Below, piece by piece: positions 9,187 to 63,587 of a stretch of 64,000 bases of DNA (the first letter of the stretch is position 1; the number at the start of each line of letters is the position of its first letter). The position numbers were made by a program, and so were the translations under genes. The notes under the pieces were generated by a model. The model saw only the letters and a list, made by a program, of their open reading frames with translations, had not been told where the DNA came from and did no database searches. Location: assembly GCA_965222835.1 (NCBI GenBank), contig CBDCUQ010000001.1, positions 195,925 to 259,924 of the forward strand, read 5' to 3'. Source of the DNA: Hyphomicrobium sp. (GTDB taxonomy: Bacteria; Pseudomonadota; Alphaproteobacteria; Rhizobiales; Hyphomicrobiaceae).

Positions 9187-12100
9187 TCATACCTCAGCCA
9201 CCGGATCGTCAGCGGGCCGGCCATCGTCCCTCAACACAATATAAATTGCGGGGATTACGAGCACCGTCAGCAGCGTCGATGAGGCAAGACCGAACAACAG
9301 CGAAATTGCAAGCCCCTGAAAGATCGGATCCGCCAAAATGACGGCGGCACCGACCATGGCAGCGAGCGCGGTCAAGAGAATGGGTTTGAAACGAATCGAA
9401 CCCGCCTCAAGCAAGACGGACCGCAACGAGGCACCCGTGTTCCTCCGCTCCGAAATAAAATCGACGAGCAGAATAGAGTTGCGCACGATAATGCCCGCAA
9501 GCGCTATGAAACCGATCATCGATGTCGCTGTAAAAGGCGCACCGAACAGCCAATGCCCCAGCATAATGCCGATCAGCGTCAACGGAACTGGTGTCAGAAT
9601 AACGAGCGGGACCGTGAACGAACCGAACTGCGCAACCACCAGGACATAAATTCCAAGCAAAGCAATTGCGAACGCCGCGCCCATGTCACGGAAGGTAATG
9701 TACGTCACTTCCCATTCGCCGTCCCATAAGAGAACCGGCCTGCTCTCGTCCTCGGGTTGACCGTGAAAACGGATCTCCGGTTTAGGAAGCGCACCCCAAT
9801 CTTTGGATTCGATGAGGTCAGCAACCGCAAGCATACCGTAAACCGGGGCTTCATAGGCACCAGCCAGCTCAGCCAATACCATTTCTGCACCACGCCCGTT
9901 GTGGCGGAAAATGGGATAGGACGCCTCTTCGCGCTTGAGCCGCACGACATCACCAAGCTCGACGATATCCCGACCACCAGGCAACGCATTAGCCGGTACG
10001 GGCGTCGATAGCGTCTCTTGCGTCAGGGCACGCTGAGATTTCGGCAACTCAACAGCGATCTCCACTGGGCGGCGGCCGCCCCCCTTGTGTGAGTAACCAA
10101 CGGGAACACCGCCGAGATAGGCTTTGATCGTGTTGTAGACGTCGCGCTCCTCCGCCTTGTGGTACTCGAGGTTGTCCTGGTCAATCACAAGCCGAAGGCG
10201 CGGTGCGCGCTCACGAAAGCTGACGTCATCGTCCACGATAAAGGGCACCTCACGAAAAATCTCCCGCACCTTCTCCGCAACAGCCCGGCGGGTTTCGGGA
10301 TCTCCACCGTAAACCTCGGCAAGCAGCGTCGCGATCACAGGCGGGCCCGGCGGCACTTCAACCACCTTAAGCGTGGTGCCGTCAGGAGCGTCTAATCCCT
10401 TCAGCCGTTCGCGGACATCAAGCGCAATCACATGGCTCGTGCGCAATCGCTCGGCCCTCGGCGCAAGATTGATTTGTAAATCGCCCTGATGCGGATCGCG
10501 CCGCAAGTAATAGTGGCGCACAAGACCATTGAAATTAAAGGGCGCGGCCGTCCCCGCATAGGCTTGTATGGAATGAAGTTCAGGAAGCGCGTTGAGGCGT
10601 TGTACTGCCGCGCCCAGCACACGATCCGTCTCCTCCAGAGATGCACCACGCGGAAGGTCAACAACCACCTGAAGTTCCGATTTGTCATCGAAGGGCAGCA
10701 GCTTCACCGTGACGGCCTTAAAGGCGATGAGCGCCATCGAGCCGAGCGTGGCAACGCCAACAAGAACGAGAAAGGTCCAGGAAGACCAACGGGCGGCAAT
10801 AATCGGGCGAGCGGCAGTGCGGTAGGCACGGCCCAACATCCCACCGTCGTGGTGCGCAACGCCATGACCAGCGCCAGTCTTGCCGAAACGCATCATCAGC
10901 CACGGCGTGATGATGACAGCAACGAAGAACGACAGCACCATCGCGGCCGACGCATTTGCAGGGATCGGGCTCATATAGGGCCCCATTAGTCCCGAGACGA
11001 ACAGCATCGGCAGAAGCGCGGCCACCACGGTCAGCGTTGCAACAATGGTCGGGTTTCCAACTTCCGCGACCGCATCGATGGCAGCCTGGGCGCGGCTTCT
11101 GCCATCTTGCATGCCCCAATGGCGCGCGATGTTCTCAATCACAACAATGGCATCGTCAACGAAAATGCCAATTGAAAAAATCAATGCGAAGAGACTGACC
11201 CGATTGATCGTATAACCCATAAGCCAGGAGGCAAAGAGCGTCAGCAGAATGGTAACCGGAATGACGACCAGAACCACAATGCCCTCGCGCCAGCCGATCG
11301 CAAGCGCCACCAAAAGAACAATCGACAGCGTCGCCAGGCCAAGATGAAACAGAAGCTCGTTCGCCTTATCGTTTGCCGTCTCTCCGTAGTTGCGAGTAAC
11401 CGTCACCGCAACATCGTCGGGGATCAGACGGCCCTTGAGATCCGCGAGCCGCTCCAGGATTTGCTCCGAAATTACGACCGCATTGGCGCCTGCCCGTTTT
11501 GCGATCGCTAATGTTACAGCCGGTACACGCTCGATCATGCCTCCACTGTTCTTCGTGTAGTGCCAGACACGACGCTCGAGTGGCTTTGCACCGACGGTCA
11601 CGCTTGCGACGTCGCGCACATAGACCGGCCGCCCATCCCGCGAGGACAGCACGAGGAGACCGATATCAGGAATACCCGAAAGCGTTTGGCCTGCAGCAAC
11701 AGTGTTGCTGCGCCCATCCTGGCGCACACGGCCTGCAACAAACGAACGGTTTGCCCCTTCTATCTTAGCGACGAGCTGAGAAAGCGTGATACCGAACAGA
11801 GACAGGCGCTCCGGATCGGGTTCGACGCGAATTTGATCAGGCCGGCCGCCGACAATGTAAGACAGGCCGACATTTTCCAGCTTGGCGAGCTCCGTCTGCA
11901 GGTCCTCGGCCATGTGATAGAGCGCGTTGTCTTTGTAGCGCGCCACACCCGTCTTGGGCGCCAGCGTTAAGGTGACGATCGCAACGTCGTCGATACCCCG
12001 GCCAACAATCAGAGGTTCAGGTATCCCAATGGGAATGCGGTCGTAGTTCGCACGGACCTTCTCGTGAACGCGAAGGATCGCTTCATCTGAAGTGGTCCCG

Positions 12101-55099: not shown

Positions 55100-55133
55100 G
55101 CCAATCAATTTCAGGCAGCTTAGGCTTTCCCGT

Positions 55134-55342
55134 GCACATCCCCCTCCCCTTGATGGGGAGGGGCGAGGGGTGGGGTGAAGAGACCGGGGGTGGGGCGAAG
55201 AGACAAACGAATTGCTTACGAGAAAAGGGCGTGAAGTTCGGGGCACCGTAGCGACACTGCATCCGATTGCGAACTTAGCCCCGCACCGACAACGCGTGGC
55301 GCACTCCCCCCACCCCAACCCCTCCCCACCAGGGGGAGGGGC
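55134..55342. repeat. Inverted REP doublet (REPIN-like), left copy
   Basis: 55140-55162 is cccctcccc-ttgat-ggggagggg, followed by ...ggggtggggtga. 55298-55342 is the inverted version, ccccccaccccaacccctcccc-accag-ggggagggg. Confidence 0.8.
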
Positions 55343-55704
55343 TTTTGAGGATGCAGCGCCCACTGCCTACTGCCGATGGCCCATTGCCTACCGCCTACGA
55401 CTTGCGGTCCACAGCCATCGTTTGCTGTCAGGGGTAAAGCGGAATTGAAGCGGACGTCGCCGCGAGGCTCGCTTCTGACTCGATTCGGAAATCGCCTTCT
55501 CGTGACACATTGCGGCGCATCAAAAACACGATCAACATGAAATGCCCCTGGCGGGCTATAATGGGCCGTCGGCCTTTTGCAGGCTTCTACAGATTTGCGG
55601 TTCCGTTTTTTAAATGTTAGACGGTTCGTACTTGTACACTTCAGGTGTCCCTCGTCAGCAATAGTGAGGCAGTTTGAGACGAATCAGGCTTGGAGGTTTT
55701 AATA

Positions 55705-56367
55705 ATGCGCAAGATGGTTTTTGGGTTTCTATTATTGGTAATTTCAATTTACTTTCCACAAATCGCTAAAAGTCAATCCAGATGCGAATGCACGTCAAGC
55801 AATTGGGTAGGTGATTGCAATGCAAGAATTTCTCTCAAGGGAAACTGGATCAAGCTAAGATCCAGTACAAATCAATGCTCTCGAATTCACTGGTATGCAA
55901 ATGAGGACCCGCAAATTACAATAGTAACTGATGGCAGTGAGTTGGTCGAATGGCTTGGTCAAGATAAGAACCCCAACTTATCAATATCGGATTGCAAAAT
56001 ATGTAAGGATCGCAAATATACAGAGAGTAGGTCCAAGCAAGACGGTCAAGAATCTAATCTAGAACAACTATTTTCCGGAACGTGGCATCACAGTAGCAAA
56101 AACGCCGGAAATCTTACGATAGATATTACTGGCGGAAAGCAGTTTCAGCACTCTGCGAGTTATGGAAACAACGGCTCATGCAAGGACTCTGGAAGCGGCT
56201 CTATTCAGAATGGATCCTTTATTGTCAAGACTACCGGAAGCTGCAGGTTCAATATCGGGGCCGGTTCGAGCATTTCGCGAAATTGGACTTGGAAGTGTTG
56301 GTTAGAAGGCCAGAATGTCTTGTTATGCAGTCCGGGCTCCGCCAAACCGATTCGTTACAACAAGTAA
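55705..56367 (+). CDS. Secreted Cys-rich hypothetical protein (about 40% GC)
   Basis: GGAGG SD 7 nt upstream. Signal peptide 'MRKMVFGFLLLVISIYFPQIAKS'. Roughly 10 Cys. No recognised domain. Confidence 0.55.
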   Translation: MRKMVFGFLLLVISIYFPQIAKSQSRCECTSSNWVGDCNARISLKGNWIKLRSSTNQCSRIHWYANEDPQITIVTDGSELVEWLGQDKNPNLSISDCKICKDRKYTESRSKQDGQESNLEQLFSGTWHHSSKNAGNLTIDITGGKQFQHSASYGNNGSCKDSGSGSIQNGSFIVKTTGSCRFNIGAGSSISRNWTWKCWLEGQNVLLCSPGSAKPIRYNK

Positions 56368-56399: not shown

Positions 56400-57930
56400 A
56401 GATGAGAGGGTGTATCTTAAATTGCAGCCCATCAACCCCCAACTGGACGGATTTTGTAGATATTGCTGATTGAAATGGCATGGGTTGCTGCGTGCAGCCT
56501 GCTTATTTTTCGATACTCTTTGGGTGCCTGCCCACAATGTAATTATCCAGTTTACATGCGAAAATAAAAAATGGCCCATTTGCTCTTGAATTGAGCGTCG
56601 CCATGCTGGCCAAGCAATGTGATGGCTTCGGTGCAGACATTGAACAAACTTCCGCTCTTGATGCTGTGGACGGCTCCTCCACCGGCATCATTGAGTGCCA
56701 AGATGGTTGCTGTTGAAGTCACCATCGAAAGAGGATCCGTCCATGAAAGAGGTTACAACAATTGGGCTGGATACGGCCAAGTCTGTTTTTCAGGTTCATG
56801 GCGTTGATGCCGCGGGCAACGTCATCTTGCGCAAGCAGTTGAAACGGCGCCAGGTTCTATCTTTTTTCAGTAAACTTCATCCTTGCTTGATTGGTCTGGA
56901 AGCCTGTTCGGCGGCGCATCACTGGTCCCGTGAACTGTCCCGGCTGGGGCATGCGGTTCGCCTCATTCCACCGCGCTATGTCAAGCCGTACGTGAAGAGC
57001 CAGAAGAACGATGCAACCGATGCGGAAGCCATCTGTGAAGCGGTGACCCGCCCTAACATGCGCTTTGTGGCGACAAAGTCGTGTGAACAACAAGCCTTGT
57101 TGATGCTCCATCGTACGCGACACCTGCTCATCCGGCAAAGAACAGCAACCATTAATGCCTTGCGCTGTCATCTTGCCGAGTTCGGTATCGTAGCCGGTGT
57201 CGGCCGCAACGGCGTCGAGGCCTTACTCAAAGTGATTACTGATAAGACTGACGCACGCATTCCTGACGTCGCGCGCGATTGCTTATTCGGCCTTGGAGAG
57301 CAACTTGAAAGTATCAAACACCAGGTCCGTGTTCTTGATGCCAAGATCATGGCGGCTCACAGGACCAATGAGCTCAGTCGCCGACTGGAAGCGATCCCGG
57401 GTGTTGGACCGCGCGTCGCAACAGCCCTTGTTGCCAGCATTGCTGATCCCAAAGCGTTCCGGTCTGGGCGGCAGATGGCGGCCTGGATCGGGCTTGTTCC
57501 CAAACAGAATTCGTCTGGCGGGAAAGACAAGCTCGGTGGTGTTACCAAGGCCGGTGACCGATACTTGCGCTCTATGCTCATGATAGGTGCGCTGTCGGTC
57601 ATCAAGCGCGTCAAACAATTAGGATACACACACCGACCATGGCTCGCGGAGCTGATGGCCCGGCGCCCCATCAAGGTCGCTGCAATTGCTCTCGCCAACA
57701 AAATCATCCGCATGGTTTGGGCGATGATGGTGCGTGGTGAAACTTATCGTGAGCCACGGGCTTTGACTGCTTAGAGAATACAGCAGAGTTCAGGCTCTGT
57801 TGTGCAAATTGGGAAGGACAACTGCTTGTAATGCGAAAGCCGGTCGTCTCGGCGATCAGGACACCCCAAATGGGCCAGAGCATCTTTGAATGCGTGCTTT
57901 TGACCGGGACCTGATCTCAGCGGAGAGCAT
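56400..57930 (+). mobile_element. IS110-family insertion sequence (ends not determined)
   Basis: Transposase ORF with about 340 nt of upstream and about 150 nt of downstream non-coding sequence. IS110 elements lack classical inverted repeats, so the coordinates are approximate. Confidence 0.45.
56743..57774 (+). CDS. IS110-family transposase (DEDD/RuvC-like + Tnp domain)
   Basis: 'IGLDTAKSVFQVHGVD', 'IGLEACSAAHHW', 'KNDATDAEAICEA' and 'IPGVGPRVATALV...GLVPKQNSSGGK'. Confidence 0.9.
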   Translation: MKEVTTIGLDTAKSVFQVHGVDAAGNVILRKQLKRRQVLSFFSKLHPCLIGLEACSAAHHWSRELSRLGHAVRLIPPRYVKPYVKSQKNDATDAEAICEAVTRPNMRFVATKSCEQQALLMLHRTRHLLIRQRTATINALRCHLAEFGIVAGVGRNGVEALLKVITDKTDARIPDVARDCLFGLGEQLESIKHQVRVLDAKIMAAHRTNELSRRLEAIPGVGPRVATALVASIADPKAFRSGRQMAAWIGLVPKQNSSGGKDKLGGVTKAGDRYLRSMLMIGALSVIKRVKQLGYTHRPWLAELMARRPIKVAAIALANKIIRMVWAMMVRGETYREPRALTA

Positions 57931-58188: not shown

Positions 58189-58506
58189 CTGCACATTCCC
58201 CTCCCCTCGATGGGGAGGGGTGCGGGGTGGGGTGATGAGACAGGCGGTCGATCGAAGATGCGAGATGGTGCGTGCCTTGTCCCGTCGAATCCTGGGCCCG
58301 TTGAACCCTGGATCCCGGGGTCAAGCCCCGGGATGACAAATACTAATGTCATCCCGGCATTCAATGCCGGGATCCAAGGTACCTCCACCGCGACAATCAG
58401 AATGCGGGCACGACGCTTACCGCAGTGCTGATTTGAGCGCGGACCCAAGACAGCAACGCGTGACGCACTCCCCCCACCCCAACCCCTCCCCGCCAGGGGG
58501 AGGGGC
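58189..58506. repeat. Inverted REP doublet (REPIN-like), right copy, with nested 'ATCCCGG' palindromes
   Basis: 58189-58240 matches 55134-55203. 58463-58506 matches 55298-55342. 58306-58337 and 58348-58378 are an inverted pair of the 48408-type palindrome. Confidence 0.8.
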
Positions 58507-59063
58507 TTAACGCTCTATTCCAAGAATCTTATCCCCGCTCCCAAAACCCACTTCATACTTCCCCGATCCCGCCGCACACGACCAGGGCCCAGGCTCGAGC
58601 TGGGAGTTTGGGAGCAGCGGGAGCGTGCCAGATACGCCATGCCCCTTCAGTGGTCATGGGGGCCGCTGCCGGTTGTGAGGCAACTCACAATCCAACTGCC
58701 GTAACGATGCGCGGCAGGGATGGTATGCCAACGGTCCGAAAAGGGGGCCCACCCCCGTTGCACGCGATAGAGCGGTGAAGGCCGCATCTATCTTTTCTTG
58801 TACGAGGCGTCACCGCTCTATCCCCTGTGAGGGGATGCTCTTTGACAATCAGAATTGAGATTGCTCCAGCGCATAACGAACTTTGGAGCCAATTGCGCAT
58901 GCCATATCCGCGAAGCGGGCCGCAGGCCCGAGCGCACGCGCGGACTTGCCGTGAGCAAAATAGAAACGCGCGCAGGGTTGGCGTGGCGGCTGCGCGCAAG
59001 AAGAAATGGCGCCGCCCCCACGCAGGCCCGAGCGCAAGCGAGGAACAGCCGTGACCGAAAAAA

Positions 59064-59639
59064 CTAATCCGAGCGTGCTTCAGCAACGACCACGGACCAC
59101 CACGGGCCTTCGCCCGAGCCGAACAGCGACTCCCAATACCACGCGGACACATCGGACCAACTTTTCCCAGCATCGGCATGAATGCCTTCGCAAACCGTCA
59201 ACGTCTCGCCGGCACGCCGGGCACGAAAGCAGCCCATATGCCGACCCAGAGCATCCGTCTGCAGCGGAATGGGATCGATGGTGTAACCCAAACCCCGGAA
59301 GCAGTCGCTGGCCGGATGCAACTTGCGCGTCGGCGCGGCGACCCACCGCAAAACAATCTCGCGCTTGCCATCGCTAAACCTTCCGATCCGTCCCGGAAAG
59401 CCTTCGACAAACGCAACCTCACGCGCTGAAAGCGGCAGCTCTTTAAGTGGCGCACCTTCATACATTGCGGGCCAACCCGGAAAGTCATCGTGTCCACTAT
59501 TCGAACCGCTACCTCCCGGCCGCGCGGCAAGCGGCGCAACAGCAGCGGCGAACGCGGCTGCAGCAAACGCGAGACGAGACCAGAGGGAATACGGCATTGT
59601 TCGGACACGCACCGGTTGATATCTCGGATATAGACTCAT
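59064..59639 (-). CDS. EpsI-like exosortase-associated protein
   Basis: N-terminal hydrophobic anchor. 'KLHPASDCFRGLGYTI' resembles the EpsI 'H-(S)P-x2-C-x-x-G-x-G-W/Y' motif as I recall it. ATGA overlap with the exosortase gene. Confidence 0.55.
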   Translation of the reverse strand: MSLYPRYQPVRVRTMPYSLWSRLAFAAAAFAAAVAPLAARPGGSGSNSGHDDFPGWPAMYEGAPLKELPLSAREVAFVEGFPGRIGRFSDGKREIVLRWVAAPTRKLHPASDCFRGLGYTIDPIPLQTDALGRHMGCFRARRAGETLTVCEGIHADAGKSWSDVSAWYWESLFGSGEGPWWSVVVAEARSD

Positions 59640-60427
59640 GCCACGGCCCCGCGCGACGCCCGCGGCGTCAATGACCAGAGGAGAACGCCGGCCGCCAGCA
59701 CGAACGACACAACACCGATCGTTTCGTGAAGCTGCTCGCTCGACCCACCCGGCGACATCGCATTAAGATGAAGAAGGCAGGAAACTCGAAGCACATTCCC
59801 GGCGACGGCAAGACCGGTGGCAATCACAGCGGCCCGCACAGTAGCAACAACGTCCGCATGCCGCACCGTCGAGATCATGAAGGACAATAACAGCAGCGCC
59901 CATAACGCCGTCACACCGCTGCACGGCGCATCGAATTGCGCCATCTCTCCGTTCTGCATCACGTACGTGCCCTGGCGTACAACGCTCATTCCCTGAAGAT
60001 TGAGAAGCCCGACGGTCAGCGTGGCCGCGACAAGACGCATCGGATAGCCGAGAACAAATTGCAGCGATGGCAGCACCGGCAACGCAAGCACAACAAGCCC
60101 ATAGAAACCCAGCGGTGGCTGTCGCCCGAACACAGCCAAGTAGAGCGTCAGGAGCACGGTAAGCACGGCCACAGCCGCGCGGACAATAGGCGGCAGGAAG
60201 AACGCCGCCACGGCATACGCAAGAAACAGAACAACAATCGGCGCGAGCGGCACCTGATGCAGTCGCCCTCCTGTCTTCAACCGCGGCAACGCCAGCGCGA
60301 ATAGAAACGCAACAGCGAGCACAAGAGACAACGCCTCTTCCGGCGTCGCCGAAACACGCACGCCATACCAGCGCCAGCTGTCCCAAAAAGCCGCAGCTAC
60401 AAGCAAGCAAAGAACCAGAGGATGCAT
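59636..60427 (-). CDS. Exosortase/archaeosortase-family transpeptidase
   Basis: About 8 TM helices. Conserved-triad candidates 'FDAPCSGVTALW' (Cys), 'GNVLRVS' (Arg) and 'LHETIG' (His). Confidence 0.75.
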   Translation of the reverse strand: MHPLVLCLLVAAAFWDSWRWYGVRVSATPEEALSLVLAVAFLFALALPRLKTGGRLHQVPLAPIVVLFLAYAVAAFFLPPIVRAAVAVLTVLLTLYLAVFGRQPPLGFYGLVVLALPVLPSLQFVLGYPMRLVAATLTVGLLNLQGMSVVRQGTYVMQNGEMAQFDAPCSGVTALWALLLLSFMISTVRHADVVATVRAAVIATGLAVAGNVLRVSCLLHLNAMSPGGSSEQLHETIGVVSFVLAAGVLLWSLTPRASRGAVA

Positions 60428-62943
60428 TAGATGCGGAACCTCGACATCTCAGAATGTCGCCAAAGAACCCAGAGGGCACTGAGGGCGAGAAGCACGATCA
60501 TCAGCCACTCATGCGGCTCCGGAACCGTTGGCACGGTACCTTTGGCCACGGGCTTGAGATTGTGCGTCTCATACTGGGCTTTGGTCTCGAGCACCACGGC
60601 CCCGCTCACCGGTGTCACCAGCTGATGGCCGGTAGCAAGTGCTATGGCCTCTGCTCGGTGTACATCTCCTGATTGAAGAATCATGTCCTGCACACGCTCG
60701 GCAGCCCAGAGACGCGCAATGTGAGGCGAGCCTTTGTCGGCGGCTCCATCTCCGGAAGTCTCGTTCCGTTCGATGATGGGCATCATGCGGCCCGCGCGTT
60801 GTGACTCGAAGAATTGCGCGAGATCGCCACGAACCGAGCCACGCGAAGGAATAGGGCGCGCCGCCCAAGCCCACGGCACATCCGGCAGAAGCGCAAGCGG
60901 TCCATGTTCGGGTGCATAAAGCGCGATCTTTGGAAATCGGGAAAGCCGGCTCGACACCTGCTCAAGAAGCGCGGCCGTGCGCCGGAACGTAATCGGCTGC
61001 GGCCCGTGCACCCAAAGGAGCGTCGCGTCGATGTCGCCTTCCAACACCGTAAGCGCCTCGGCAAGCGCCGCCGAATTGTCTTGACCGCCCACAAAATCCC
61101 AATCGTCAAGCGCCTCACGAACTGTCTTGACCTGACCAGCCTCCCAAGGTGCTGCAGGCACATGCACGAGCGGTACACCAGCAATAATGAGACCCACACG
61201 CTGCCCTGTCGGAATGGCATCCAACGCGCGAGAGAGATCTGCACGATGCTTCCCGAGGCCTACCGATCCATCGACGACGATCATCAGCGTTCCGGGATCG
61301 GGCACCGGCTTCACTGCAATTATTTGCAGGATTTTTTGCTCTCCGGTCTGAGCAATCAACCTATTTGCCCCCGCCGCCCGCGTCGCGACGATCTGGGGCC
61401 GCTTCTCGGAAAGGTCGCCATTCTTCACCATGCCGCCGATACGATAGCCACCAGCAGCCGTTTGCGACGAAACAAGAGGCGTATGATTTGCGCTAAGCGC
61501 TTGCTTGCTCTCGATCCAGATGGCGTGTGCCTCATCATCCGGAATGTCGAAGTTGTGCTCAAGAAGTGCCGGAAGCGTCAGCCGGCCTAGAGTCAAGGTG
61601 TCCAACGCAAGCGGTGCGGTCATACCGATCTTGAACTTCAGCGTGCCGCCGTTGCGCGGAACGGGAAAGGCCTGCGCTAGAACGCGGCCGGCACCCTTGG
61701 TGGTGACCAGAAGAGGATCGCGGCGCTGGCGGACCGCCACATCGGTGTAGGCTTTGCGCACCGCACCCCGGCCGCCGAACGCCGCCTCTTGTTCCACGCC
61801 ATCGATCCAAAGCGTCGCCCGCGAAACAACGGCACCGGTAGGCAGAGCAAACACAAACCGCGCTTCCCGGTCGAGCGGATCCTTGTTGCGCACGGCGATG
61901 GTCCACTCGAGATAAGCGAGCGCCGCATCTGCCGAAACCGAAGCGTCCATGCGCGATGACACGAGGCCAAGACCCGCGATCTGTCCGCCAACCTGCGTAC
62001 CGCCGTGATCGCCATCCCAAGAAAAGTCACCAGCCCGTGTCACACGCACACGGGCTTGCGGACGCGGCAATGCGTTGAAGGGCACGCCATAAGCGCGGAA
62101 GAAGACCTCGCGAACGTCAGCCGTCGATCGCGCAAAGCGGCGTTCGGGCGCGTCGAGAAGCGCCGCCCCGCCAAACGTTACAAGCAGGCTCAGAAGCCCG
62201 CCCGGCTTACCATTGACGTTGTAACAGAGACGAAGAAGCGTTGGCTGATCGCCCAACGTCCGCAAGAGTGTCAGACCGCGCTCGCGCTGCGCAATATCCG
62301 AGCTGACAGCCCACTGCACGCCGAGCCGCGTCGCGGCCTGAGGAACGTCAAGCGCAATGAGCGCTGCAAACCCAGCCACGGCCCCAATCAAAACACGCCG
62401 GTTGAAGCGAGGAACGGCCGATTGAACCGCAAGCCTAGTCTTTAAAGCCCACGCGACAAGAAAAGAGGCAAGCGGCCCCATCGGCAGCAGTCCGAGTCCA
62501 TAAAAGAGCACGGCAATGAGGGCCACAGGAAGCAGGGGCAAAAAGAGAAGGGCATAAAACGCGGAAATAGCGAGCGTTGCCCCACTGATATAGGAATACC
62601 AGAAGGGAATGGTGGAGGACTTTGCGCGGAGCTTGAGAGAGAAGAGGAGGTTGGCAGCCGGCACACTTGCGACGAGAAGCGTGTGCCATGGTGTTGGCAT
62701 CGGATCAAAGAACGCCTCCGCACACATGCGGGTCGCAAGCTCCGTCGCAATGACCGCAAACGGTAAGACGATCCCGAATAGAACGGTCAGAATGCCAGGC
62801 GGCGGCCGCTCTGGCCGGTCCGGCTCCCCACGCAAAGGCGCCGCACCTCCAGCAGGTTTCAAAACCCATTCAATGAGTGTGCTGCGATCGTCTGACTCGC
62901 GCGTACGCTGGCTCATTGCCCCTCCCGTGTCGTACTGGACCAC
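60427..62943 (-). CDS. Polytopic membrane protein with VIT and vWA-like domains and a C-terminal PEP-CTERM-like sorting signal
   Basis: About 6-8 N-terminal TM helices. VIT-like 'AVVSRATLWIDGVEQEAAFGGRGAVRKAYTD...VLAQAFPVPRNGGTLKFKIG'. vWA-like 'LMIVVDGSVGLG'. The tail is 'VPEPHEWLMIVLLALSALWVLWRHSEMSRFRI'. Confidence 0.8.
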   Translation of the reverse strand: MVQYDTGGAMSQRTRESDDRSTLIEWVLKPAGGAAPLRGEPDRPERPPPGILTVLFGIVLPFAVIATELATRMCAEAFFDPMPTPWHTLLVASVPAANLLFSLKLRAKSSTIPFWYSYISGATLAISAFYALLFLPLLPVALIAVLFYGLGLLPMGPLASFLVAWALKTRLAVQSAVPRFNRRVLIGAVAGFAALIALDVPQAATRLGVQWAVSSDIAQRERGLTLLRTLGDQPTLLRLCYNVNGKPGGLLSLLVTFGGAALLDAPERRFARSTADVREVFFRAYGVPFNALPRPQARVRVTRAGDFSWDGDHGGTQVGGQIAGLGLVSSRMDASVSADAALAYLEWTIAVRNKDPLDREARFVFALPTGAVVSRATLWIDGVEQEAAFGGRGAVRKAYTDVAVRQRRDPLLVTTKGAGRVLAQAFPVPRNGGTLKFKIGMTAPLALDTLTLGRLTLPALLEHNFDIPDDEAHAIWIESKQALSANHTPLVSSQTAAGGYRIGGMVKNGDLSEKRPQIVATRAAGANRLIAQTGEQKILQIIAVKPVPDPGTLMIVVDGSVGLGKHRADLSRALDAIPTGQRVGLIIAGVPLVHVPAAPWEAGQVKTVREALDDWDFVGGQDNSAALAEALTVLEGDIDATLLWVHGPQPITFRRTAALLEQVSSRLSRFPKIALYAPEHGPLALLPDVPWAWAARPIPSRGSVRGDLAQFFESQRAGRMMPIIERNETSGDGAADKGSPHIARLWAAERVQDMILQSGDVHRAEAIALATGHQLVTPVSGAVVLETKAQYETHNLKPVAKGTVPTVPEPHEWLMIVLLALSALWVLWRHSEMSRFRI

Positions 62944-63104
62944 CGGCCAAGTTCGATACCACCTGGTCTGACGAGCCGAATGTCGCGTATTGCGAGGCGC
63001 GCGAGGAGAGACCAGAGGTGGCCTTTTCCAGCAATGGTCAGCAGAGAGCTGGGGCGCCTCGGCGCGGGCGTGCGGGAAGGTACGGGTTTGTACGGCTGAA
63101 ACGC

Positions 63105-63587
63105 CTAAACGCGATGATAGGGGTGCCCGGCGATGATCGTCGCCGCACGGTAGATTTGCTCGACAAGCACAACGCGCGCAAGACCGTGTGGAAGTGTCAT
63201 CACGCCCAGTGAAAGCTTGAGGTCCGCCGACTGAATTGCTTCGTCCCCGTGCCCGTCCGGCCCACCGATAAGTAGCCCCGCAAGCTTTGCTCCCCCATCA
63301 CGGCGCTCACGTAGAAAATTCGCGAACGCGTCGCTTGAGAGCGCTTTTCCCCGTTCGTCGAGAACAATACGGAGGTCTGCCCCCTGGCACGACTTCAAGA
63401 GACGTTGCGCTTCATCGGCCTTGCGCAGTTCCGCGGTCGCCGCGCGTCCCTCAGAAAGTTCCGAGATCAAAAGTGGACCGAGCCCCAAACTCCGCCCGTT
63501 AGAATCAAAACGGGCTTTGTACTTTTCAACGAGATCGCGCTCTGCCTCATCCTTCAGTTTACCAACCGCGGCAAGGATGAGACGCAT
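63105..63587 (-). CDS. rlmH: 23S rRNA (pseudouridine1915-N3)-methyltransferase
   Basis: 'LLIGGPDGH' and 'LSLGVMTLPHGLARVVLVEQIYRA..I..GHPYHR'. Confidence 0.9.
   Translation of the reverse strand: MRLILAAVGKLKDEAERDLVEKYKARFDSNGRSLGLGPLLISELSEGRAATAELRKADEAQRLLKSCQGADLRIVLDERGKALSSDAFANFLRERRDGGAKLAGLLIGGPDGHGDEAIQSADLKLSLGVMTLPHGLARVVLVEQIYRAATIIAGHPYHRV

Follow-up and report, generated by a model that had tools for sequence, protein, structure and literature searches.

Does an exosortase gene that lies next to a single plausible substrate gene serve that substrate alone, and if so, what would become of a membrane protein that is already held at its other end? This question is raised by three minus-strand genes in a 64-kb stretch of a Hyphomicrobium contig, the whole of which was analysed and is called the window here. 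They encode, in order, a polytopic protein with VIT and vWA-like domains (the target), an exosortase, and a small accessory protein. In our judgment they quite probably make up a dedicated one-enzyme, one-target exosortase operon that works by the mechanism proposed below, and at the level of the locus the cassette has both the features of the exosortase superfamily and those of a dedicated system.

Exosortases are widespread, but we know of no account of what their substrates get attached to. Systems with many substrates, located in exopolysaccharide (EPS) loci, are hard to dissect, and a unit of just three genes, whose one target is large and easy to detect, offers a simpler case in which to ask whether exosortases transfer their substrates or only cleave them, what the acceptor is, and what role the EpsI-type partners have. 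An earlier note on this DNA had pointed out the cassette; its observation is confirmed and its interpretation supported, with three corrections, which concern the start codon of the first gene, the number of transmembrane (TM) helices in its product, and the identity of the third protein.

The sorting signal

The C-terminus of the target reads TVPTVPEPHEW-LMIVLLALSALWVLW-RHSEMSRFRI (60430-60537), in which VPEP-HEW abuts a hydrophobic span of about 15 residues that is followed by the basic segment RHSEMSRFRI. This is the tripartite PEP-CTERM architecture that the note had recognized, and a PEP motif adjoining the TM helix is a feature that has been described for PEP-CTERM proteins (Haft preprint, 10.1101/2023.06.07.544157). 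It is conserved in the orthologs: all 120 listed homologues of the target, about 47-55% identical to it overall, carry P-T-x-P-E-P-x-x-W, with Pro-3, Thr-2, Pro0, Glu1, Pro2 and Trp5 present in 120/120 and somewhat less strict conservation of Val-4 (118), Glu4 (110) and His3 (106). A hydrophobic span of 14-17 residues follows the motif in 117 of the 120, and their last 18 residues include an average of 2.9 basic ones. The same tail is found in loci from several phyla. The generic PEP-CTERM model TIGR02595 is not among the matches of the target at E<=0.1, models of such short domains often being lost by filters, and there are weak matches of the tail to two PEP-CTERM protein family models (E 0.004). 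Using a simple scan for a PEP motif, TM helix and basic end, only this one tail was detected in the window, and the same scan of 497 kb of related loci found one tail per proteobacterial locus.

The exosortase

The 263-AA product of the second gene scores 70.1 bits against PF09721 (cut-off 25.7) and 41.8 bits against TIGR04178, the exosortase/archaeosortase signature (cut-off 23), in agreement with the family and the Cys/Arg/His candidates that had been proposed for it. In 26 exosortase sequences (the window copy and 25 homologues, 41-78% identity) the invariant residues include C169, within FDAPCSG, along with N211, R214, H234 and G238, the last four forming the motifs N211-x-x-R214 and H234-x-x-x-G238. 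A Cys/Arg/His set has been described for the exosortase/archaeosortase family and mirrors that of the sortase transpeptidases (Haft preprint, 10.1101/2023.06.07.544157). In the archaeosortase ArtA, Cys173, Arg214 and Arg253 are critical for activity, which consists of cleavage and then lipid attachment (PMC9263693). No solved structures were found for the exosortase family.

The nearest named subfamily is XrtQ (NF012182), to which the enzyme aligns over its full length (253/256 model positions) with 115.7 bits, the cut-off being 270. Twenty relatives, ten of them from other genomes and ten of them fused proteins, were compared in the same way; XrtQ is the best named subfamily for every one, at 99-198 bits. 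Because the window enzyme and all 20 relatives fall below the XrtQ cut-off, the whole clade appears from these scores to be an unnamed neighbour of XrtQ; public records name its members just "exosortase/archaeosortase family protein". Scores against XrtN, XrtT, XrtO and XrtA all lie within 36-51 bits: 50.5 for XrtN (TIGR04476, 406 positions, cut-off 200), where the core only is aligned, 48.7 for XrtT (NF033770, cut-off 250) and 36.2 for XrtA (TIGR03109, cut-off 208). The 8TM_EpsH model (TIGR02602, cut-off 105.55) gives 37.4.

Conservation of the triad

One genome per species was scanned for the cassette, yielding 45 loci, the best of which is 57-58% identical to the window copy. The hosts, which include Alpha-, Gamma- and Betaproteobacteria, are Hyphomicrobium, Hyphomicrobiaceae, Xanthobacteraceae, Devosia, Sphingomonas deserti, Dongiaceae, Woeseiaceae, Steroidobacteraceae, Exilibacterium tricleocarpae, Thiodiazotropha, Burkholderiales, Magnetococcales, and bins of Poribacteria, Planctomycetaceae and Verrucomicrobiota. 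The earlier note had remarked on the alphaproteobacterial context, but the system is not confined to Alphaproteobacteria. Two of the hosts of the triad, Exilibacterium tricleocarpae R142 and Sphingomonas deserti GL-C-18, are in culture.

In every locus that is long enough, the genes for target, enzyme and accessory protein are found in this order on one strand, their stop and start codons usually overlapping. Adjacency of enzyme and target across genomes, by which "dedicated" one-to-one systems have been defined (Haft and Varghese, PMC3237569), is likewise seen in all of these. The identities of the three proteins to their window counterparts are correlated over 31 loci (Spearman 0.62-0.76). 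The three genes are a translationally coupled, co-inherited unit. No fourth gene is conserved: outside the triad no gene is common to more than 9 of the 45 loci, and the nine that have the commonest extra gene include three from Xanthobacteraceae (L006, L007 and L011). In the window, rsfS-rlmH lies on one side of the cassette and an insertion sequence (IS)/repeat region on the other; the rsfS-rlmH flank is common to the window and its nearest metagenomic relative (L047) only, and other flanks vary. With the triad conserved, its flanks variable and no other PEP-CTERM-like tail in the window, the description of a self-contained cassette with one dedicated polytopic VIT/vWA-like target stands.

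Two of the loci show variations. In L047 (693-7377) the target gene comes after rsfS-rlmH, while a 458-AA fusion of exosortase and accessory protein (P0003) is encoded on the other strand at a distance of 2.8 kb, with nadD-like and PNPOx genes in between; here the pairing of target and enzyme survives without adjacency. The spacer between rlmH and the VIT gene measures 188 nt both there and in the window, and an alignment of the two contains no extended conserved block. In Oceaniferula spumae (Verrucomicrobiota, L044, 4896-8266), the trio includes a 673-AA target that has canonical VIT and vWA domains and no polytopic N-terminus, together with an enzyme that is XrtQ-like (144 bits) and a homologue of the accessory protein with 38% identity. 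A second, classic PEP-CTERM protein is encoded 3 kb downstream of this trio (11020-11613).

The target protein

The AlphaFold2 model of the target, built with 58 sequences, has a mean predicted local distance difference test score (pLDDT) of 87.6 and a predicted template-modelling score (pTM) of 0.83. It consists of five long helices within AA 42-203, a helical linker, a beta-rich domain (316-540), an alpha/beta domain (544-775) and a terminal helix (801-828); the 6-8 N-terminal TM helices of the earlier note are thus reduced to five, plus the C-terminal one. Because the number of helices in the bundle is odd and the charge pattern is of the positive-inside kind, with a basic N-terminal tail and basic loops 2-3 and 4-5, the VIT and vWA-like module is predicted to be periplasmic and the basic C-terminal tail, like the N-terminus, to be cytoplasmic.

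The five-helix bundle also matches, weakly, the TM regions of the MSEP-CTERM and TIGR04477 models. Its invariant residues include the polar E59, C65, H78, N89 and D190 as well as several Pro and Gly, and by the helix limits of the model most of the polar ones would be near the periplasmic face. Polar invariance of this kind is unusual for a mere anchor and suggests that the modelled bundle forms a binding or catalytic site.

VIT is the sole Pfam family detected in the target; PF08487 gives 32 bits, above its gathering threshold of 26.5, and the VIT region matches TIGR04477 with E 2.6e-20. No Pfam vWA family is found at E<=0.1, and the vWA-like part of the earlier description therefore stands on structure and profiles. 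Foldseek matches the fold to ITIH1, to the vWA protein 4fx5 (E 3.7e-6) and to the vWA domain of ANTXR2, isolated vWA domains giving E values of about 1e-6, and a profile comparison of the target family matches it to the vWA domain of ITIH4. The metal-ion-dependent adhesion site (MIDAS) is degenerate, as had been seen: the invariant columns and the ITIH4 alignment indicate that D549 and S551 are kept, that the DxSxS loop is shortened, and that GGT has become GGQD and TDG has become HGP. In the Foldseek search of the PDB with the target, the first match is inter-alpha-inhibitor heavy chain 1 (ITIH1, 6fpy), with E 1.3e-20 over 587 columns.

Among NCBIfam models, the best match of the target is TIGR04477 (XrtN system VIT domain-containing protein; 129.6 bits, cut-off 250) and the next is TIGR04286 (MSEP-CTERM; 39.8 bits, cut-off 150), the latter confined to the TM region. 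When the target was scanned in three pieces it proved collinear with the 822 positions of TIGR04477: its N-terminal TM region matches at 91-178, its VIT region at 335-448 and its C-terminal region at 708-818. The likeness to XrtN and MSEP-CTERM systems, on which the earlier note had remarked, is thereby borne out. A target anchored at both ends, which it had thought mechanistically odd, is not unique, given the collinear protein of the XrtN system and the recurrence of sorted VIT/vWA proteins (PMC3237569).

The accessory protein

The third protein has an N-terminal TM helix (AA 19-38), then an FPGWP motif, and then an alpha/beta domain that is predicted to be periplasmic; its AlphaFold2 model has a pLDDT of 90. 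Invariant in the family alignment (A2) are R98, R105, H108, C113, E151 and six Trp. No Pfam family matches it. It had been called EpsI-like, but none of 38 family members matches any EpsI model (TIGR02914 or PF11984) at E<=10, in Pfam or NCBIfam. All 38 match, instead, just the C-terminal region (about 278-445 of 472) of the XrtT model, with a best E of 4e-12, and by these profile matches the accessory domain appears to be the same as that built into the C-terminus of XrtT; the domain is either different from EpsI or too distantly related for these models to detect.

An exhaustive profile search found the accessory domain in 969 representative clusters (E<=0.001). Of the 150 best representatives listed, about half are proteins of 440-520 AA with the domain at the C-terminus, and the ten such long proteins that were scanned are all XrtQ-like exosortases fused to the accessory domain; P0003 and a protein from a Poribacteria locus (L029) are further fusions of this kind. 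EpsI, whose function was unknown, was reported to have its gene directly after that of the exosortase, or else to be fused to the enzyme (Haft 2006, PMC1569441). The accessory domain regularly accompanies exosortases of the XrtQ-like clade and is placed or fused just as was described for EpsI, and in position and fusion behaviour the earlier label was apt.

A 937-AA metagenomic protein (P0424) at first sight joins all three parts: its VIT-vWA portion is canonical (249 bits against a marine sortase-target model), its exosortase is XrtQ-like (198 bits), and the accessory domain is present too. It was rejected as a triple fusion: residues 420-490 or so are rich in Arg, Gly and Pro, like an out-of-frame translation. 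A frameshift or an error of gene calling is the probable cause, and the record would then show the same gene order and adjacency with a canonical vWA target.

Relationships to known sorting systems

Members of the XrtN family occur as one enzyme beside one target in a Bacteroidetes lineage, and to our knowledge their targets are usually without P-E-P. The XrtN system, which is defined only as NCBIfam/TIGRFAMs models (TIGR04476 and TIGR04477), shares with the cassette a target of the same architecture -- polytopic N-terminus, VIT, vWA-like region and C-terminal sorting helix -- and the 829-AA target here is collinear with the 822-position model and nearly equal to it in length. It differs in that the target falls well short of the TIGR04477 cut-off, the adjacent enzyme is XrtQ-like and not XrtN, the accessory domain is encoded by a separate gene and is not part of the 406-position enzyme model, the sorting signal keeps the canonical P-E-P, and the hosts of the window type are Proteobacteria and other phyla. 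XrtQ itself is the best-scoring named subfamily for the enzyme, with full-length alignment, but the whole clade scores below its cut-off. XrtT has the accessory domain as its C-terminal region, whereas here that domain is a separate gene product and the enzyme core is far below the XrtT cut-off.

The XrtA/EpsH-EpsI system of EPS loci (Haft 2006, PMC1569441) resembles the cassette in the exosortase fold family, in the tripartite PEP signal, and in having a small protein downstream or fused. Unlike that system, the cassette has no EPS genes in sight nearby and one target rather than many; its enzyme falls below the XrtA and 8TM_EpsH cut-offs, and its accessory protein goes undetected by EpsI models. 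VIT/vWA homologues ending in LPXTG (with a dedicated adjacent sortase), in GlyGly-CTERM or in PEP-CTERM have been documented (Haft and Varghese, PMC3237569). The dedicated Gram-negative sortase with its VIT/vWA LPXTG target (TIGR03784/TIGR03788) and the VIT/vWA GlyGly-CTERM proteins resemble the present case: the C-terminal sorting enzyme has just one adjacent target, which is of VIT/vWA type. They differ from it in enzyme family and in signal, and those targets have a canonical vWA domain and no polytopic N-terminus, as in L044.

The best structural match of the target is to the ITIH heavy chains (ITIH1, 6fpy; ITIH4, 9c4f). Three collinear profile matches correspond to VIT, the start of vWA and the region after it. 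The ITIH heavy chains lose a C-terminal pro-domain as their new C-termini become ester-linked to a glycan, chondroitin sulfate (PMC7170535), and the target too would lose a C-terminal segment if it is processed as proposed below. The differences are large: identity is about 11%, MIDAS is degenerate in the target and functional in HC1, the bacterial protein has a polytopic N-terminus, the processing enzymes are unrelated, and transfer of the target is so far conjectural.

The curated cut-offs of XrtQ, XrtN, XrtA, XrtT, TIGR04477, MSEP-CTERM and EpsI are all missed by the cassette. To judge by the models, the most fitting description is that of an unnamed variant, for the most part proteobacterial, of catalogued dedicated sorting systems, one that combines a homologue of the XrtN-type target, an XrtQ-like enzyme, an extended canonical PEP motif and a separate accessory protein of XrtT C-terminal type. 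The theme of sorted VIT/vWA proteins was already known, curated models exist for polytopic targets (TIGR04477/XrtN and MSEP-CTERM), and a specialist would not be greatly surprised. What is gained is the definition of three families that deserve names, since the curated models now give them none or a generic one -- the enzyme clade close to XrtQ, the target with the VPTVPEPHEW tail and the accessory domain -- along with a structural link between sorted bacterial VIT/vWA proteins and the ITIH heavy chains of mammals, which in their turn undergo transfer by the C-terminus.

Proposed mechanism and alternatives

We propose that the exosortase recognizes the PEP motif of the target at the outer face of the inner membrane and, by analogy with ArtA, would remove the C-terminal helix by way of an acyl-Cys169 intermediate. 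The new C-terminus could then be handed to an acceptor, either a glycan or a lipid of the envelope, with the accessory protein handling the substrate or the acceptor on the periplasmic side, as has been proposed for EpsI. The processed target would stay in the inner membrane by its N-terminal bundle, the C-terminus of its ITIH-like module being either freed or covalently tethered. Transfer is favoured here over clipping because of the sortase-like residue set, the coupling of cleavage to lipid attachment in ArtA, and the precedent of the ITIH heavy chains.

Several points weigh against this proposal. It is by analogy that cleavage, an acyl-enzyme intermediate and an acceptor are put forward. 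The topology of the target has been taken from the helix limits of the AlphaFold2 model and the charge distribution, not from a dedicated predictor. The role suggested for the accessory protein is a guess, since it has no solved structural relative and matches no EpsI model; its best Foldseek match to solved structures, PsbP/DUF1795-like, has E 0.17 and a TM-score of 0.3-0.4, too weak to use. The statement that there is only one target holds for the 64-kb window and for the loci of about 14 kb each, and the spread over phyla may be overstated, as bins of metagenome-assembled genomes can be contaminated. No experimental or descriptive literature was found on the cassette, and none on its relatives XrtN and XrtQ; searches for these two and for MSEP-CTERM gave unrelated papers.

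The alternative that survives best keeps the same operon and the same recognition but makes the exosortase a protease only, which would clip away the C-terminal helix, so as to mature the target or to release its C-terminal end in a regulated way, and attach nothing, leaving the N-terminal bundle as sole anchor. According to the Haft preprint (10.1101/2023.06.07.544157) it is not settled that exosortases and archaeosortases work as one-step transpeptidases, no genes for glycan or lipid synthesis are conserved beside the cassette, and a target already anchored at its N-terminus has no need of re-anchoring. Nevertheless we consider this unlikely, if worth keeping in view: the Cys/Arg/His set mirrors that of sortase transpeptidases, processing by ArtA is coupled to lipid attachment, the structurally closest characterized proteins are transferred by their C-termini, and simple clipping would not readily explain a periplasmic accessory domain that is conserved and rich in Trp.

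It is also conceivable that the cassette belongs, as an ordinary member, to a larger PEP-CTERM/EPS system with many substrates, and that the remaining targets and the polysaccharide genes are encoded in other parts of the genome. The window covers just 64 kb of a 485,673-bp contig, and in the Verrucomicrobiota locus a second classic PEP-CTERM protein does lie 3 kb away. This nonetheless seems very improbable, as the enzyme scores far below the cut-offs of XrtA (36 vs 208 bits) and 8TM_EpsH (37 vs 105), no EPS genes are seen beside the cassette, no gene other than the triad is conserved across the 45 loci, the tail motif is much tighter than generic PEP-CTERM and occurs once per proteobacterial locus, and the triad moves as a unit through varied contexts. 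Least probable of all is that the C-terminal helix is a plain anchor and the exosortase homologue acts on another molecule or is a non-catalytic partner, adjacency reflecting complex formation: cleavage of the target has indeed been deduced, not observed, and the invariant polar residues of its bundle (E59, C65, H78, N89 and D190) could give it an activity of its own, but a plain anchor would not be expected to keep P-T-x-P-E-P-x-x-W in 120/120 homologues at about 50% overall identity, nor would the candidate catalytic Cys/Arg/His of the enzyme be expected to be invariant.

Returning to transfer by a dedicated exosortase, a more specific form of it can be entertained, though we regard it as doubtful: the cassette might be a bacterial counterpart of ITIH heavy-chain chemistry, in which the target would be cut at VPEP and its C-terminal carboxyl transferred to a glycan or lipid of the envelope, with the five-helix bundle holding the other end. 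The product would be a covalent tether from inner membrane to envelope, or a sensor, and the Trp-rich accessory domain would present the acceptor. If this were true, C-terminal covalent transfer would be the ancestral mode of VIT-vWA modules, from bacteria to mammals.

Gene boundaries and flanking DNA

The coordinates of the genes and domains are collected in Table 1.

Table 1. Features of the exosortase cassette, in positions of the window
Feature	Position	Strand	Evidence
Target gene, 829-AA polytopic VIT/vWA-like protein with PEP-CTERM-type tail	60427..62916	-	stop TAA 60427-60429
N-terminal 5-TM bundle (predicted), AA 42-203	62308..62793	-	AlphaFold2 helices 42-62, 76-98, 106-139, 141-165, 171-203; hydropathy
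VIT-type beta domain, AA ~316-540	61297..61971	-	PF08487, TIGR04477 VIT region, AlphaFold2 strands, ITIH1 6fpy match
vWA-like alpha/beta domain, AA ~544-775	60592..61287	-	Foldseek, profile alignment to ITIH4, invariant columns
C-terminal sorting signal, AA 794-829	60430..60537	-	sequence; AlphaFold2 helix 801-828
Exosortase gene, 263 AA	59636..60427	-	open reading frame and family models
Candidate catalytic residues of the exosortase	Cys169 59921-59923; Arg214 59786-59788; His234 59726-59728	-	invariance
Accessory gene, 191 AA (177 AA from Met15)	59064..59639	-	open reading frame

The list of open reading frames of the window has three on the minus strand here, 60427..62943, 59636..60427 and 59064..59639. 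As reported earlier, they are coupled: the stop of the target gene and the start of the exosortase gene have 1 base in common (TAATG, 60425-60429), and the stop of the exosortase gene and the start of the accessory gene have 4 (ATGA, 59636-59639). The first gene had been read as encoding 838 AA, from GTG 62943; this start is less likely, and ATG 62916, giving 829 AA, is the most likely one because a GGGAGG ribosome-binding site lies 5 nt upstream of it and the database copy (P0121) is also 829 AA long. The accessory gene may start at Met15 (59597), for a product of 177 AA, because its homologues have about 175. Its public gene call (P0243, 133 AA) begins at Met59 and is without the TM helix and the FPGWP motif; both are carried by the homologues of about 175 AA in alignment A2, and the deposited annotation is probably truncated. 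No sigma-70-like promoter was found in 58300-63300, and the terminator-like sites listed there are all inside coding sequence. No Rfam families were found in the window, and none of the three proteins was matched by PADLOC for anti-phage defence.

Horizontal acquisition of the cassette was considered and set aside: its GC content of 0.60-0.63 is that of its surroundings, and just the neighbouring IS segment is anomalous. A tblastn search of plasmids with the exosortase gave no match. The anomalous segment, with 45-52% GC as against about 60%, is bracketed by two copies of a composite C/G-rich palindromic repeat (55133-55344 and 58190-58508, some 3.1 kb apart), which share one stretch of 69 nt with 86% identity and another of 55 nt with 96%. 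It contains an orphan Cys-rich open reading frame without Pfam match (55690-56367) and an IS110-family transposase gene (56695-57774), and appears to have been inserted into a repeated intergenic element. Directly after the stop of the accessory gene, a 40-nt sequence is found twice, 100 nt apart and with 83% identity (58921-58960 and 59021-59060); the pair could be a terminator or an element resembling repetitive extragenic palindromic (REP) sequences.

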